32,000 bases of DNA from Cupriavidus necator (GTDB lineage: Bacteria > Pseudomonadota > Gammaproteobacteria > Burkholderiales > Burkholderiaceae): contig NZ_CP066018.1 in assembly GCF_016127575.1 (NCBI RefSeq), positions 1,440,001 through 1,472,000 on the forward strand, written 5' to 3'. The notes beneath the pieces were generated by a model that worked only from the letters and a program-made list of their open reading frames with translations, was not told the origin of the DNA and made no database searches. How positions within the stretch are numbered: position 1 is the first letter of the stretch; the number at the start of each line of letters is the position of its first letter. The translations under genes and the position numbers were made by a program. This document shows, one piece after another, positions 7,597 through 32,000 of the stretch.

Positions 7597-8092
7597 TACA
7601 GCGGTGGCCCTCCTGCTCAATGCAATCGTGATCGGCACCGGCGCAACGCTGGTGATGGACGCCTGGGCCATCCTGCGCAAGCGGCTGCTGGGCGTCCCTG
7701 CGCTGGACTATGGACTCGTAGGCCGTTGGCTCGCGTGGCTGCCGCGAGGACGCCTTTGCCACCATCCCATCGCCGCATCGCCGCCGGTGCGCGGCGAGCG
7801 CGGGATCGGCTGGATCGCGCATTACCTGACCGGCATCGTGTTCGCGGCCATCCTGCTGGGGCTATGGGGACTCGACTGGGCACATCATCCGACGCTGGCA
7901 CCCGCGTTGATCGTCGGCATCGGCAGTGTGGCGGCACCGTTCCTGCTGATGCAGCCGGCGATGGGTGCCGGCATCGCCGCGAGCCGCACGCCGCGGCCAA
8001 ACGTGGCACGGGTGCATAGCCTGGTGACGCATGCGGTGTTCGGGCTGGGGCTCTATGTGGCGGGTTGGGTCGTGAGCCTGGTAGCGAACTGA
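7589..8092 (+). CDS. DUF2938-family integral membrane protein
   Basis: 167 aa and hydrophobic. It contains GTGATLVMDAWAIL...LDYGLVGRW...GERGIGWIAHYLTGIVFA as in DUF2938. Its ATG overlaps the methyltransferase stop by 8 nt (ATGCCTGA), implying co-translation. Confidence 0.75.
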   Translation: MPDTAVALLLNAIVIGTGATLVMDAWAILRKRLLGVPALDYGLVGRWLAWLPRGRLCHHPIAASPPVRGERGIGWIAHYLTGIVFAAILLGLWGLDWAHHPTLAPALIVGIGSVAAPFLLMQPAMGAGIAASRTPRPNVARVHSLVTHAVFGLGLYVAGWVVSLVAN

Positions 8093-8101
8093 CAAGCGGG
8101 C

Positions 8102-8122
8102 ACAGCGGCAGGCTGCCGTTGT
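8102..8122 (+). terminator. Weak hairpin after the DUF2938 gene
   Basis: ACAGCGGCAG-G-CTGCCGTTGT is an imperfect stem 10 nt past the stop at 8092. There is no T tract. Confidence 0.25.
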
Positions 8123-8316
8123 CAGATCCAAGGCCGAGGAGAAACCTCCGCGGCTTTCCGGATTTATGGCCTCAGCCAGGCATCGGAGACCGCGCCCAAA
8201 GTTTGCCGCCCGCTTCTGTGGGCTATCGAACCGTAGATTGCTGGCGCCGCTCCAGAATAGAAGTCCATCGGCGCCCGCTTCAGCGCCGGACGATCCCCAC
8301 CATCACGGGCGACAGG

Positions 8317-9180
8317 ATGACAAGGCTTTCGGGCCGGCTGGCTGCGTGCATCGCGTTCGGCCTTCTGCTGGCTGCCAGTGCGCAGGCGTCGGATATAGCC
8401 TGCAAGACCACGCTGCGTCCTTCCCGCTGCGACGATCCGCTCGCCGCCGGCACGTCCTGCCTGCATTCAGTGCCACACGCCGCCGACCTGATCTGCGATC
8501 ACGCGATGCTCCATCGCGAACATGAGCGCATCCACGCGGACCAGCAGCGCCGGCTACGCGCCGGCGCGATTCAAGGAAGCGACATCGCCGCCTGGCGGGA
8601 GCGCCGGGACGCCTGCACGTCGGTGGCATGCCTGGACCGGGTCTTTGCCAGCTGGCGGCGGCAGCCAGGCAAGAAACCACCGCGGGCTGCCGCGCCGCAA
8701 CCAACGCCGCCGGCGGCGCGGGCGCGGGAGGTGTCGAGGAACAAGCAGGCTGCGGTCAGGGTCGAGGCCTCGCGGCCAGCGGTCGCGCCACCTTCAGCGA
8801 CGCCAGCGACTCAACCAGCAGCGGAGCAGCTTCCAGCTCCACCACCGTCAGAGCCATTGGCAGAAGCGGGGATTCATGCGCCCCCTGTGGTGATCCAAAG
8901 AGCCTCCGGCCCGACGCTCCAGCAAGCTTCAATTCGTCCGACGCCGGCGCCGCAACCACGCGGCTGGGCATCGCTGGGCACGCTGGCGTGGCTGGGCATG
9001 TGCGGCGCGGGCGTCGCCTGCTGGTCCCGGCGTACGCGCGGCGAGTGGCTGCCGGGGGTCACCCGCCTGCGCGAGCGGACTCGGGATGCGCCGCCCATCG
9101 TGCTGTTGGTGAGCGGACTGCTCGCTTTGAACGGGGTACTGCTGTTGTGCGTCCTGACGGCGAGCCGGCCATTGTCGTGA
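8317..9180 (+). CDS. Hypothetical secreted/membrane-anchored protein (Cys-containing N-domain, Pro/Ala-rich linker, C-terminal TM helices)
   Basis: I moved the start to the ATG at 8317, giving MTRLSGRLAACIAFGLLLAASAQA-SD, a signal peptide with an AQA cleavage site. The Pro/Ala-rich middle reads PPRAAAPQPTPPAARA...PAPPPSEP. There are two hydrophobic C-terminal segments (LGTLAWLGMCGAGVACW and IVLLVSGLLALNGVLLLCVL). I recognised no family. Confidence 0.55.
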   Translation: MTRLSGRLAACIAFGLLLAASAQASDIACKTTLRPSRCDDPLAAGTSCLHSVPHAADLICDHAMLHREHERIHADQQRRLRAGAIQGSDIAAWRERRDACTSVACLDRVFASWRRQPGKKPPRAAAPQPTPPAARAREVSRNKQAAVRVEASRPAVAPPSATPATQPAAEQLPAPPPSEPLAEAGIHAPPVVIQRASGPTLQQASIRPTPAPQPRGWASLGTLAWLGMCGAGVACWSRRTRGEWLPGVTRLRERTRDAPPIVLLVSGLLALNGVLLLCVLTASRPLS

Positions 9181-27904: not shown

Positions 27905-28114
27905 TCACCATGGCAGAAGTGGTGCTGGCTGTACTCCAGGGGCGGCGCTCGGCAGGCAACGGCCGGCGCCCGGCGCATCTATAACCCATAACTACCCATA
28001 ACCACCCATAAGCCATCCAACCTCGACATTGCGCAACGCGGCCTGGGTCAGTTCGCTGATCCGCAGTCCCGTGGCATAGCCGAAGTCCAGCAGAAAGCGC
28101 AACCGTTGCGTCAT
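27905..28114 (-). pseudogene. Tyrosine recombinase (phage-type integrase) remnant
   Basis: The minus-strand reading from 28114 gives TQRLRFLLDFGYATGLRISELTQAALRNVEV, the box I region with the catalytic Arg (TGLRxSEL). An in-frame TAG follows after about 40 codons, then only degenerate sequence. The core-binding half, the HxxR box and the catalytic Tyr are absent. Confidence 0.6.
27981..28020. repeat. 10-bp tandem repeat (ANNACCCATA x3 plus one degenerate unit)
   Basis: Consecutive decamers are ATAACCCATA, ACTACCCATA, ACCACCCATA and AGCCATCCAA. They lie inside the integrase remnant and contain its premature stop. Confidence 0.85.
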
Positions 28115-29238
28115 ACCGTGACCTCCGTCTGCCGCCGGATCAGGTCCTCCGCCTCGGCTCGGGTCAGGGCGCCCTCGCGCCTGCGCTGCGGCTCCTGCGC
28201 CCACATCCGTTCCAGGTCTTCACGCGACGGTTTGGCATCCGGGCCGCTCGGGACACCGATATAGTCGTCGGCGTAGGGACGGGCATACGGGTCGTTGGGT
28301 GTGGGCTTGCACGCTGCCTCGATCTCGGGCGGCCACACCGGGTCGCCGCACGTGGCCAGTACGAGCCAACGGGCGAATGCATCGAGCAGGGCGAAAGGCG
28401 AGAATATGAAGTCGATCATGGCCCAAAAAGCCCCGGAGAATTTCCCGCCCCGGCAAATCTTGTACCCCTCCCAGAACGTCTCCCGCGGCGGCCAGAAACG
28501 ATAGGGCTCAGGCAGATTGGCGGGGCCGTCCTGCATGTAACGCCGGTAGTATTCCCATTGCGCGTAGATCTCTTCCAGCGTCAGCGCGAACTGGCCGAGC
28601 ACGAAGGCACGTACCACGTTGCCCTCCGCGTCGAGCTGGTAATGGCGGATGTCGTACATGTCATAGGCGCGCGACAGCCCACCCATGCGCCGGTGACCAA
28701 CGCAGAAGAACTCGTCCTCGCTCCATGGGACCTCCCAGATGCCGCCGGGGTCCTTGGTGCGGATGGCGTAGATGCGGCGCGTCTTGCGGTTCAGCCGGAT
28801 CGGGCGGCGTTTCAGCGTGAACATGTTCCGCCGCATCGGATCGAAGGCCAACAAGCCAAAGAAGCCAGTTCCAATGATTCCAACGGTCGTGCCGAGAATT
28901 ACGCCTGCCCAGTTGCCTTTACGAGCCATCACCTCTGCAGTTTCTCGGAATGGGGCGGAAGCAAAGAATACTGTTCCCAGCAACATAAAAATCGTCGCAA
29001 ACGAGCAGATTATCCAGAGCATCCCCACGTTCTGTATCCGCATTTGCGACTCATCGGTGATCTCCAGGCAGGTCGAATCGATGCGATAGACGTTGCCGTA
29101 CTCCACGACTTGCTCACTGACGGGGCGGCGGATGGACAGCCGGTGCTCCAACTCCCACTTCCCCAGTGGCTTGCCTGTCTGCCTAAAATAAAAAGGCGTG
29201 CGCTCATCTTTGGTCGGGAATTTCATCAGCGCCCTCAC
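28111..29238 (-). CDS. Hypothetical 3-TM membrane protein; candidate immunity protein for the upstream MIX effector
   Basis: 375-aa ORF 30 nt downstream of the effector stop on the same strand. GTG 29238 has an AAGGA 6 nt upstream; ATG 29226 is an alternative start. Hydrophobic helices fall at about aa 72-93, 109-132 and 268-295. Composition is lower-GC. I cannot name a family with certainty. Confidence 0.6.
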   Translation of the reverse strand: MRALMKFPTKDERTPFYFRQTGKPLGKWELEHRLSIRRPVSEQVVEYGNVYRIDSTCLEITDESQMRIQNVGMLWIICSFATIFMLLGTVFFASAPFRETAEVMARKGNWAGVILGTTVGIIGTGFFGLLAFDPMRRNMFTLKRRPIRLNRKTRRIYAIRTKDPGGIWEVPWSEDEFFCVGHRRMGGLSRAYDMYDIRHYQLDAEGNVVRAFVLGQFALTLEEIYAQWEYYRRYMQDGPANLPEPYRFWPPRETFWEGYKICRGGKFSGAFWAMIDFIFSPFALLDAFARWLVLATCGDPVWPPEIEAACKPTPNDPYARPYADDYIGVPSGPDAKPSREDLERMWAQEPQRRREGALTRAEAEDLIRRQTEVTV

Positions 29239-29268: not shown

Positions 29269-31830
29269 TCAAACGATTCCGCCGCTGCTGTAGTGCTCGC
29301 TGGCGGGAGCCTTGCTGAAGCGGCAACGCTTGATCCACTTGAGGGTGGCGGGATCATCCAGAAGCAGGATGCCAACATTCACAGCGAACAGCACGACGAG
29401 GAACGGCCAACTTGGTACGCCGACGAGGAAGGCCAAAAATTCTTCCGAAGCAAGAGGAAGGATTGCAGTGGCAAGTCCAGATCCAGCCGACGTAAAGTAC
29501 AGACCTGAAACAAAATAGTTGCCCTTCCGGCCTTCATCGGCTCCGTGATAAGCGTCCCATCCGACTCCCACAACGGCCCCGGCGAAACCGATCCAGCGGC
29601 CCTTAACCGCCAATTTCTTCCCCGTTTCTGCCCACTCCGCTTTGGATGGCGAACGCATGATGCGCTGAACCAGCGGGTGCGTCGGTGCCTTCTCCAATGC
29701 GACACCCGCTTGCTCTGCGACGGTGCCGGCCATGGCCACCAAGCCGCCCACCAGCTTGGTGCCTTTCTCCACCTCATCGAACTCGCCAGCCGCGCGGAAG
29801 GATTGGGTGGCGTGATAGAGCGCCAGCCCTTGCAGGATGCAGGCAACCGCACCGACGTTCACAAAGCGAGAACCCAAGACTGCCTTAACTTGCCGCACGC
29901 CGGGTACGTCATTTTCCGTGCGCAGCTTGAGCACGCTCAGTTCGGCATTGCTCCCCAGATCCTCGGTCCTGAACCAGACCAGCCTCGCGCTCTGCGCGAG
30001 CTTGCTGCTGGCCCGCCGCGCCCAGGCTGCGGCTTCCTCGCGGCGCTGGGTCCGGCCTAACTGCTTGTAGAGTGCTGGATTGACGGCCTCCAGGTCGCTC
30101 AGCACCGTGGCACGGATCTGCATGACGCTCGCGGTACGGGAAACCAACCGTACGCCGCTGGACAGGCTCATGCCATACAAGGCCAACCGGGCGGACGCCG
30201 ACCCCACCTTGTTGGCCAGGGCAGGAATAACCTCATCGGCAAGTATCCAGGTCAGGCGCGGCACCAGACTCATCTTCGCCAGCGCTTCGGGCAGTGTGAG
30301 GCCCTTTGCCGTGACGTCCATGTTATCGATGCCGCTTTTCAGGATGCCGAAGATCGCCCCGTATCCCTGGTCGGTCGGGTCCGCCACGGTGTCGATGATG
30401 GGCTTGTGATCCAGCATCAGCGCCCGCGCAAGCAGATTATCGTGGCGTACCGGATTCGCATCGTCGAACCAGCGCTTGATTACGCGACGGCACTCCACGG
30501 TATCCAGCGCATTTTCCAGGCATCGGGTCAGCGACTCGTTGTAGACATAGCCATGCGGCAGTTCGAGCTTGTCATGGCGGTACTGCATGTAGGCGGCAAG
30601 CTGGGGGCTCACGAGCCATTGCGCGAGCGACGCCGCAATCGGTGCGAGCACATTCTCGTTGAGCATCTTGAGGCGCGGCGCCAGATTCTGGTGGCGCTTG
30701 CCCGGCGTCAGTTCATCTTCGTAGGGCTTCCATGCGGCGTCGCTGGCGGCCTTCAATCTCTCAAGGCGCGTGGCTTCCCGCGCGGCGTCTTCGCGCTTCC
30801 AGCGCTCGGCGGTCGCTTTGCCATTGAACAGGGCTGACATGAGTTCGTAAGCTGGAAATCCTTCCGGCGTGGTCGCCGTGCGCTCCGCCTCAGCGAGGGC
30901 CGCCTCGGCCTCCTTCGTGTGCTGCGCTTCCGCGTTGGCTCGAATGTTCTTTTCGAGCGTATTCAGGAACAGATCGGTTGCCTTATCCCAGATGACACTG
31001 TTGTTGGCCTTCGGATGCAGCTTCGGATTGGTAAGTTTGCCCAGATCCTCTGCAATGCCAAGCGGATCATTGAAAGCCAGCAGCATGGCATCGCCAGGCG
31101 AGACCCGCTCCATGGCTTCAGACAGGATTGCGCCCGCTGGGCTGCCGATCAGGTCCAGGTGGTCGTCCGCTTTGACGCGCGGCGGCGCGGACAGATACTT
31201 GAACGCCTCGTCCTGATCCTTGGGCGGCATGGCAAACGACGCAACCTGTTTGCCAAGCTCCGTCATCCGTGCCGCATGCGGGGCATTGTGGCCACCCATC
31301 CATGCCTTCACGTCCAGAGACTGCATGTGCTTCTTGCGCAGGTCCGGCTGGTTCTTGTTGTCATTCAGTTGCGCCTGGGTCCACTGGACATGCGAATAGG
31401 CATACCAGACGGTCGTCGCGTCCTTCAGGTTGGGAATCGTGAAGTACATCGACGTATAGCCGTGACCGATTCCCACGCTGCAAAAGAATTCGGTCGGCGT
31501 CTTGGGCGGCGCCGGGCGCTCGGGAATGATTTTCCACAGGTGTCCGCCATTCAGCACGAGATAGCAATCCCAGTGTTGCAAGGCTTCGTGGAACACGTAC
31601 AGAAAGCCCGGACGCATGGCCCGCAGCGTGTACTGCGCACCGCCGCCAAGCTGGGCGGGTGCGTCCACGATCTTGAAGTTCCCGGCCAGGGCCGGCGCCC
31701 CTTGCTTGCCCTCCGGGCCGACCACCGCATAGCGTACCGGCAGCACGGCGAGACCGGGCGGATGGTCGCAAAACGAGCAGCCCTTGACGGACGGTGTGAA
31801 GCGGTCAACAGCAGACGTGGCGTTATCCAT
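29269..31830 (-). CDS. Type VI secretion MIX-type effector (VasX / BTH_I2691-like N-terminus, membrane-inserting C-terminus)
   Basis: 853 aa. After CSFC (aa 18-21), all three MIX motifs are present. They are AVLPVR (aa 28-33, shhPhR), MRPGFLYVF (aa 72-80, hRxGhhYhh) and WYAYSHVQWT (aa 142-151, hhYSxxxWT). The middle is helical. Five hydrophobic Gly/Ala-rich segments lie between aa 656 and 824. There is no signal peptide. Confidence 0.8.
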   Translation of the reverse strand: MDNATSAVDRFTPSVKGCSFCDHPPGLAVLPVRYAVVGPEGKQGAPALAGNFKIVDAPAQLGGGAQYTLRAMRPGFLYVFHEALQHWDCYLVLNGGHLWKIIPERPAPPKTPTEFFCSVGIGHGYTSMYFTIPNLKDATTVWYAYSHVQWTQAQLNDNKNQPDLRKKHMQSLDVKAWMGGHNAPHAARMTELGKQVASFAMPPKDQDEAFKYLSAPPRVKADDHLDLIGSPAGAILSEAMERVSPGDAMLLAFNDPLGIAEDLGKLTNPKLHPKANNSVIWDKATDLFLNTLEKNIRANAEAQHTKEAEAALAEAERTATTPEGFPAYELMSALFNGKATAERWKREDAAREATRLERLKAASDAAWKPYEDELTPGKRHQNLAPRLKMLNENVLAPIAASLAQWLVSPQLAAYMQYRHDKLELPHGYVYNESLTRCLENALDTVECRRVIKRWFDDANPVRHDNLLARALMLDHKPIIDTVADPTDQGYGAIFGILKSGIDNMDVTAKGLTLPEALAKMSLVPRLTWILADEVIPALANKVGSASARLALYGMSLSSGVRLVSRTASVMQIRATVLSDLEAVNPALYKQLGRTQRREEAAAWARRASSKLAQSARLVWFRTEDLGSNAELSVLKLRTENDVPGVRQVKAVLGSRFVNVGAVACILQGLALYHATQSFRAAGEFDEVEKGTKLVGGLVAMAGTVAEQAGVALEKAPTHPLVQRIMRSPSKAEWAETGKKLAVKGRWIGFAGAVVGVGWDAYHGADEGRKGNYFVSGLYFTSAGSGLATAILPLASEEFLAFLVGVPSWPFLVVLFAVNVGILLLDDPATLKWIKRCRFSKAPASEHYSSGGIV

Positions 31831-32000
31831 AGTGTGAGGCGCTTGCGGTTTTCCTGGCGGTTTCCGCCATGATCTTCATGAGTTGCCAATCGTGGGAGGA
31901 CAATTGGGCCAGCGCCTGGCGCAGGGTCATCTCGCCGCTGGCGACGGCGGGCCACAATGCCTGCAACTTCGTGTGGTTCTCGAAGGGCTGGCCAAACGCG
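31823..32000 (-). CDS. Partial CDS (C-terminal 58 codons; 5-prime end outside the window), possible T6SS adaptor by position
   Basis: This ORF is not in the track. The minus-strand frame reads AFGQPFENHTKLQALWPAVASGEMTLRQALAQLSSHDWQLMKIMAETARKTASASHYG-stop and is open to the window edge. Its TAA (31825-31823) overlaps the effector ATG (31830-31828) in ATGGATAA. Confidence 0.45.
   Translation of the reverse strand, partial: AFGQPFENHTKLQALWPAVASGEMTLRQALAQLSSHDWQLMKIMAETARKTASASHYG

Follow-up and report, generated by a model that had tools for sequence, protein, structure and literature searches.

A short BTH_I2691-family type VI effector, predicted to form pores, and its DUF6708 immunity candidate in a probably stranded module of Cupriavidus necator H16

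Several toxins of the BTH_I2691 family, which are exported by a type VI secretion system (T6SS), have been described in detail. T6SS-dependent export, ion-selective pore formation and depolarization, and neutralization by an immunity protein are known only from Tke5 of Pseudomonas putida, Ptx2 of Pseudomonas aeruginosa and VasX of Vibrio cholerae (PMC13133200; PMC12909789; bioRxiv 10.1101/2025.04.30.651342), and the data on the family include two cryo-electron microscopy structures, electrophysiology and domain dissection (PMC12909789; PMC13133200; bioRxiv 10.1101/2025.04.30.651342). In Tke5, the MIX domain binds the DUF4123 adaptor Tap3, the α region (residues 239-863) suffices alone to make the protein toxic and is the part on which immunity acts, being neutralized by Tki5, and the C-terminal immunoglobulin-like (Ig-like) domain binds membranes, is dispensable for toxicity and is missing in some members of the family (PMC12909789). 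Tke5 forms ion-selective pores and depolarizes cells (PMC13133200), and mutations in the transmembrane (TM) domain of Ptx2 lower its toxicity (bioRxiv 10.1101/2025.04.30.651342). We describe here a relative of these toxins, the product of gene H16_A0029 of C. necator H16, which lies at 29269..31830 on the minus strand of a 32,000-nucleotide (nt) stretch of chromosome 1 (contig NZ_CP066018.1, positions 1,440,001 to 1,472,000), hereafter the window, whose numbering is used throughout unless a locus number (L) is given. In our view H16_A0029 is very likely a pore-forming toxin of the BTH_I2691 family, paired with a DUF6708 immunity protein and belonging to a module that is stranded in H16.

The open reading frame (ORF) starts at an ATG and encodes 853 amino acids (aa), as had been proposed in an initial annotation made from the DNA letters alone. 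Its product is identical to CAJ91181.1/WP_011614302.1 of C. necator H16 chromosome 1. H16_A0029 is a member of a known toxin family, characterized both structurally and functionally, and already so labelled in RefSeq, where it is named "T6SS effector BTH_I2691 family protein" and is flanked by H16_A0028 (DUF4123) and a DUF6708 protein. The Pfam VasX_N profile (PF20249), which describes the MIX domain, matches aa 18-179 (31294..31779, minus strand) over its full length (positions 1-156 of 156) with an E-value of 8.1e-41, and this region aligns with the MIX domain of Tke5. It opens with a CxxC motif, CSFC, at aa 18-21, which is followed by the three MIX motifs: AVLPVR (shhPhR, aa 28-33, nt 31749-31732), MRPGFLYVF (hRxGhhYhh, aa 72-80, nt 31617-31591) and WYAYSHVQWT (hhF/YSxxxWS/T, aa 142-151, nt 31407-31378), all on the minus strand. 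Since the VasX_N match is that strong over the full profile, these motifs lie far beyond chance; R33, R73, G75 and W150 are moreover invariant in an alignment of 89 members of the family. The curated NCBIfam model NF041559 extends the assignment to the rest of the protein, with a score of 459 bits (cut-off 150) over aa 16-849, corresponding to profile positions 1-845 of 858. The initial annotation had already read the CxxC, the three motifs and a MIX/VasX/BTH_I2691-type effector at these positions, and these hidden Markov model matches bear it out. It had also left some 480 residues in the centre, as well as the domain responsible for toxicity, without assignment, which no longer holds, because NF041559 covers aa 16-849; in addition, the C-terminus aligns with the TM region of Tke5.

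The family to which the protein belongs is large, with 1814 representatives (at 50% identity) at E ≤ 0.001 and 609 at E ≤ 1e-30, and end-to-end matches with a length of 810-950 aa are frequent among the best 150 of the 1814 representatives listed. A scan of one genome per species recovered 188 relatives, mostly from Burkholderiales, Halomonadaceae and Xanthomonadales; these are more distant relatives and include neither the H16 nor the C. basilensis loci themselves. A second homologue search, with the alignment as query, contributed one extra protein. A further reading, in which H16_A0029 encodes a resident membrane-anchored protein or else a pore former of the colicin type that leaves the cell in a different way, would agree with the name given to the gene in 2006 ("putative membrane anchored protein"), with the hydrophobic C-terminus and with the short colicin-like stretch noted in the literature for VasX and Tke5. 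This reading is effectively refuted by the full-length match to a curated T6SS effector family and by the presence of orthologues within vgrG-tap-effector-immunity operons. The colicin-type pore-forming domain was rejected on three grounds: no colicin family was found in Pfam at E ≤ 0.1, no colicin chain in sequence searches of the PDB with either the whole protein or its C-terminal 206 aa at E ≤ 10, and no colicin among the top 50 Foldseek matches listed.

Structure prediction, which the initial annotation had suggested for the C-terminal part, was carried out on the whole protein with AlphaFold2. A model built on an initial 12-sequence alignment had a predicted local distance difference test score (pLDDT) of 46 and was discarded in favour of one built on the 89-sequence alignment (pLDDT 83, predicted TM-score 0.75). 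In the latter, the α/β fold of the N-terminal domain reaches ~aa 255, with β strands between aa 26 and 146 and pLDDT > 90, and the protein is helical from aa 256 to its end. A central all-α region, ~aa 256-640 (29911..31065, minus strand), is modelled with pLDDT mostly of 80-97, lies within the NF041559 match and corresponds, by profile alignment and fold search, to the α region of Tke5 and to the scaffold domain of Ptx2 (PMC12909789). Next comes a helical region that is hydrophobic and rich in glycine, ~aa 645-835 (29326..29898, minus strand), which, from its hydrophobicity, the model and the Tke5 alignment, is predicted to be a membrane-inserting pore-forming domain. Its long helices span aa 655-680, 686-714, 730-768, 772-793 and 808-824, and a conserved W-x3-C-x-F motif closes it.

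This C-terminal region agrees with the initial description of five hydrophobic, glycine-rich segments. Glycine accounts for 12.2% of aa 641-853 versus 5.8% of the remaining sequence, with glycine-rich stretches at aa 695-709 (GGLVAMAGTVAEQAG), 748-757 (GFAGAVVGVG) and 781-793 (SAGSGLATAILPL). A Kyte-Doolittle scan over 19 residues returned five hydrophobic segments (aa 648-666, 693-711, 740-758, 773-794 and 799-817), of which the last alone is strongly hydrophobic (2.26), the other four ranging from 1.1 to 1.6.

Searched against the PDB, the profile of the 89 family members gave convincing matches to Tke5 (9r8g_A, E 8.9e-41) and Ptx2 (9qpv_A, E 3e-12) only. The Tke5 match consists of three stretches, one of which pairs profile positions 563-822 with Tke5 residues 539-829 (i-Evalue 2.6e-6), i.e., with the part of Tke5 that holds its five predicted TM segments (PMC12909789); on this alignment, the C-terminus of the effector is shown to be homologous to the Tke5 TM region. 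The Ptx2 alignment spans Ptx2 residues 147-1007. In line with these results, a Foldseek search of the PDB with the model returned two significant matches only, again 9r8g_A (E 8.9e-11) and 9qpv (E 2.1e-8), each with a probability of 1.00. After the helical region, a C-terminal β domain of the Ig-like type is absent from the model, and the protein ends at aa 853. Its absence does not exclude membership of the BTH_I2691 family, since short members are common among the hits listed and members without this domain have been noted (PMC12909789). Within the BTH_I2691 (VasX/Tke5/Ptx2) family, the effector belongs to the short form, made of a MIX domain and an α region only.

By homology with Tke5 and Ptx2, a mechanism can be proposed in which the toxin would be delivered to the periplasm of the target cell, where its hydrophobic helices would be released from the scaffold and would then insert into the inner membrane, forming there a pore that conducts ions and makes the membrane potential collapse. 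The product of the next gene would act as the cognate immunity protein. Pore formation, depolarization and neutralization by the immunity protein are transferred here from the characterized relatives, and a membrane-depolarizing action is the best inference for this effector. The initial annotation had likewise proposed a membrane-depolarizing toxin, and this part stands; it had left the mechanism open, whereas that of the family is published.

The immunity candidate is H16_A0030, a DUF6708 membrane protein (Pfam PF20455, E 2e-20) of 371 aa with an ATG start, encoded at 28111..29226 on the minus strand, 43 nt downstream of the effector. The mechanical ORF list extends the gene to a GTG at 29238. 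The protein has three hydrophobic segments (aa 70-88, 109-127 and 273-291), which agrees with the earlier suggestion of a membrane immunity protein downstream of the toxin. Among 84 related loci, a homologue of H16_A0030 lies directly downstream of 67 of the 85 full-length effectors, often as tandem DUF6708 copies, from two to seven in number (for example in loci L031, L054, L070 and L076), so that the synteny between BTH_I2691 effector and DUF6708 gene is conserved. In Stenotrophomonas rhizophila, an effector with MIX and BTH_I2691 domains is listed with Tsi3a, a DUF6708 protein, as its immunity partner, and many paralogues follow Tsi3a (PMC13340143).

The genomic context also bears on the nature of the target. 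C. necator is a soil bacterium that faces protist grazing. A toxin aimed at eukaryotic cells, such as amoebae, instead of bacteria could suit this way of life, and VasX is required to kill Dictyostelium, according to work cited in PMC13133200. Against this stand the dedicated membrane immunity gene directly downstream, which is a signature of antibacterial effectors, the two to seven copies of it in relatives, and the antibacterial activity of Tke5, Ptx2 and VasX, all with cognate immunity proteins (PMC13133200). We regard a eukaryotic target as very improbable.

The surroundings of the toxin gene depart from the usual arrangement. The canonical order, vgrG, DUF4123 adaptor (tap), effector and DUF6708 gene, is found in C. 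basilensis, at another locus of a sister strain of C. necator (GCA_001481455.1) and in most relatives, with an adjacent tap for 55 of the 85 full-length effectors and a vgrG within 3 kb for 67 of them. In H16, no vgrG was found in the 10 kb upstream of the effector, and no T6SS gene elsewhere in the 32-kb window. The adaptor gene H16_A0028, whose 3′ end occupies 31823..32000 on the minus strand, overlaps the effector start by 8 nt, continues beyond the window and is broken. Its 227-aa ORF matches only positions 64-118 of the DUF4123 profile, the second half of it, with a score below the cut-off, and tblastn places adaptor residues 53-93 and 91-303 in different frames at the H16 locus. Compared with the 331-aa allele of the sister strain (99.4% DNA identity), a 1-bp insertion of an A splits the H16 gene; the same insertion is present in four assemblies.

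In addition, the first ~87 codons of the H16 adaptor ORF (L001:9012-9260, just past position 32000 of the window) replace adaptor residues 1-52. These ~87 residues share 62% identity with the N-terminal part of a protein of 204 aa that gives a weak cell-wall-hydrolase match and whose gene, 7 kb away (L001:2218-2832, minus strand), adjoins a PAAR gene. Because its N-terminus matches this PAAR-linked protein, the adaptor can be described as a chimera arising from recombination of two T6SS accessory modules. Recombination in the H16 lineage probably took away vgrG and exchanged the first ~52 adaptor residues, after which the adaptor gene gained the +1 frameshift. One could go further and regard the 331-aa chimeric adaptor, an allele of several C. 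necator strains in which the PAAR-linked ~87 residues are joined to the effector-binding part of a DUF4123 adaptor, as a natural domain swap. If functional, it could have moved a VasX-type toxin off a VgrG spike and onto a module linked to PAAR, and H16 and the sister strains would then represent successive stages in the failure or abandonment of this rewiring with the immunity gene kept, but we hold this idea to be a long shot. As a separate observation, the PAAR-linked block upstream of a GGDEF-EAL gene occupies one strand in H16 (L001:1700-3389) and the other in the sister strain (L085:1-1919), which suggests an inversion.

The downstream edge of the module is altered as well. A 40-aa fragment of a tyrosine recombinase (27992..28114, minus strand; weak Phage_integrase match, E 0.009) begins at an ATGA overlap with the stop codon of the immunity gene. 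At this breakpoint, relatives carry a gene for a 218- or 228-aa protein, after which C. basilensis has a PAAR gene.

The effector gene itself carries a lesion at its 3′ end. An alignment with the DNA of the sister strain (L085) and the translation of orthologues show that a 5-bp deletion (CTGGA), with its junction between nt 29284 and 29283, shifts the frame, with the result that the ancestral 17-residue tail LEAESFEFVQLGLKDTK is replaced by GGIV and a stop codon (29269..29283, minus strand). This deletion is the reason why the final 13 positions of the NF041559 profile are unmatched. Orthologues of the effector are 866-868 aa long and have the conserved tail that the 853-aa H16 allele is missing; at least 13 residues, in a moderately conserved pattern, follow the deletion point in 88 of the 88 other aligned members, versus four in H16. 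The last four residues of the 853-aa product stem from the deletion and are not the tail of the family, which corrects the initial annotation.

Other strains have lost the effector in different ways. In the sister strain, the syntenic locus (L085:7708-9716) has an out-of-frame effector deletion of ~591 bp, with intact tap and immunity genes, while its second locus (L086:4617-12415) holds a complete module made of vgrG, tap, an 868-aa effector, a DUF6708 gene and the 228-aa gene; this paralogous effector is 75% identical to the H16 protein. In other C. necator assemblies, effector fragments of 347 and 536 aa lie beside 371-aa immunity proteins. The effector is broken, then, in the sister strain and, judging from truncated products, in at least one further strain, and the immunity gene is intact in all of them. 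Long-term ratios of nonsynonymous to synonymous substitution rates (dN/dS) of only 0.13-0.22 for the adaptor, effector and immunity genes indicate that the lesions are recent.

Taken together, the lack of an adjacent vgrG, the chimeric and frameshifted tap, the lost effector tail and the replaced accessory genes depict a module that is stranded and decaying in H16. Efficient loading of the toxin onto the T6SS has probably ceased in this strain, and we infer that the locus persists mainly through its intact immunity gene.

The main alternative is that the effector is still a working weapon, expressed and loaded in trans on a non-adjacent VgrG by means of another DUF4123 adaptor or of the 227-aa adaptor fragment, and that its shortening by 13 residues is harmless. 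A single T6SS has been reported in H16 (bioRxiv 10.64898/2026.04.04.716520; PMC8356804), and the genome, in which the initial annotation had pointed to vgrG as informative, has at least one other copy of this gene, on chromosome 1 at ~2.40 Mb (L087:10001-14448). There, vgrG (816 aa) is followed by a short DUF4123 gene of 190 aa, an ORF of 92 aa, a DUF3304 gene and a DotU fragment of 160 aa; no recognizable effector was found in this island, which looks likewise eroded. The VgrG of the island and the cognate-type VgrG of the sister strain share 46% identity from end to end. A working weapon would also agree with the intact MIX domain and entire toxic α region of H16_A0029, with dN/dS values of 0.13-0.18 and with the orphan MIX effectors known in other species (table in PMC13133200). 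Against this alternative, the N-terminal domain of Tap3, chiefly its loop 31-50, makes most of the contacts with Tke5 (PMC12909789), whereas the H16 adaptor has a foreign N-terminus in place of the native one and its gene carries a frameshift. Each adaptor is described as specific to its effector (PMC12909789), and the other DUF4123 gene encodes just 190 aa and lies in an eroded locus. Moreover, sister strains have inactivated the effector outright. We consider a weapon still in use unlikely, if by a smaller margin than a eukaryotic target or a resident membrane protein.

Several observations nonetheless weigh against a stranded pore-forming module. The toxic α region is intact and the lesions are recent, so the toxin may still be active, and the loss of the 17-residue tail is a lesion of putative importance only. 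H16 has at least one further vgrG with its own short DUF4123 gene as well as a reported T6SS, which makes delivery in trans conceivable. As regards the assignment, identity to Tke5 is ~16% and the global TM-scores given by Foldseek are low (0.31-0.36); nothing on H16_A0028, H16_A0029 or H16_A0030 turned up in a search of the literature. Low global TM-scores are to be expected, however, because the structures of Tke5 and Ptx2 are reported to superpose poorly on each other and because models from AlphaFold tend to show the TM domain extended (PMC12909789; bioRxiv 10.1101/2025.04.30.651342).

With regard to the origin of the pair, the GC content at third codon positions (GC3) of the effector and immunity genes is 0.75-0.77, versus 0.79-0.90 for surrounding metabolic genes, and this lower value is consistent with horizontal acquisition. 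The 32-kb window holds no transfer RNA gene, so that no island boundary linked to such a gene can be identified, and megablast of the locus against a plasmid collection gave no match. A scan of the locus for promoters and terminators found sites no more numerous than in shuffled controls. The other genes of the window encode a helicase, a methyl-accepting chemotaxis protein, methyltransferases, an ATP-binding cassette substrate-binding protein, an arginase, a saccharopine dehydrogenase, TauD, TctC, regulators and a major facilitator superfamily transporter. A 371-aa ORF at 8065-9180 (plus strand) has no Pfam match, failed the GC3 filter and may not be a real gene.

As the structure of the family and its depolarizing mechanism were published in 2025-2026, the importance of H16_A0029 lies mostly in annotation, and what is new is local, namely an orphaned and partly decayed copy of the effector with a retained immunity gene. 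The short form without the Ig-like membrane-binding domain is common, and this fits the published toxicity of the α region alone. The C. necator lineage furthermore is a clean case, found in nature, of how an effector-immunity module decays once its vgrG has been lost; that H16 and its sister strain carry different lesions next to an intact immunity gene fits a longer-lasting selection on the orphan immunity than on the weapon. For those who employ H16 as a chassis in industry, this locus is probably no active weapon.

Among characterized systems, Tke5 of P. putida KT2440 (PDB 9R8G; immunity protein Tki5, adaptor Tap3) is the best match both by profile and by fold. Its MIX motifs, PILPVR, LRPGYVYVF and IGYSPHLWT, correspond to AVLPVR, MRPGFLYVF and YAYSHVQWT of the H16 protein, whose motifs are most like those of this clan II protein, a resemblance only. 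The two proteins share a large helical region with five weakly hydrophobic, glycine-rich segments near its C-terminal end and a W...R(C/S)xFG motif conserved after the last hydrophobic helix, and both are encoded upstream of a membrane immunity gene, with a DUF4123 adaptor gene preceding the effector in loci orthologous to that of H16. Unlike Tke5, the H16 protein is without the Ig-like, β-rich receptor-binding domain (Tke5 residues 864-996); its locus lies outside a T6SS cluster, with a chimeric adaptor gene that carries a frameshift, and 17 residues are missing from the end of the family core.

Ptx2 of P. aeruginosa (PDB 9QPV; immunity protein Pti2, adaptor Tap6, VgrG6), the second significant match in the PDB, is a membrane-depolarizing toxin that acts from the periplasm and has the same order of MIX domain, helical scaffold and TM domain. 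It differs in its length of 1192 aa, its C-terminal Ig-like domain and its MIX clan (I), and its sequence similarity to the H16 protein is very low (profile E 3e-12). VasX of V. cholerae (immunity protein TsiV2, adaptor VasW), the founder of Pfam VasX_N, is likened to H16_A0029 through this profile and by description: its delivery depends on VgrG and a DUF4123 protein, and it damages the inner membrane. At 1085 aa it is longer, and it has an anti-amoeba role in addition. Finally, the Tse3/Tsi3a pair of S. rhizophila CFBP13503 is encoded by a vgrG-tap-effector operon followed by the DUF6708 immunity gene and its paralogues (PMC13340143). That operon is complete and its products have been seen by proteomics, whereas H16 has just one immunity gene at its locus and lacks a vgrG there; the immunity family is nevertheless that of H16_A0030, and the same tandem arrays recur in the loci related to it.

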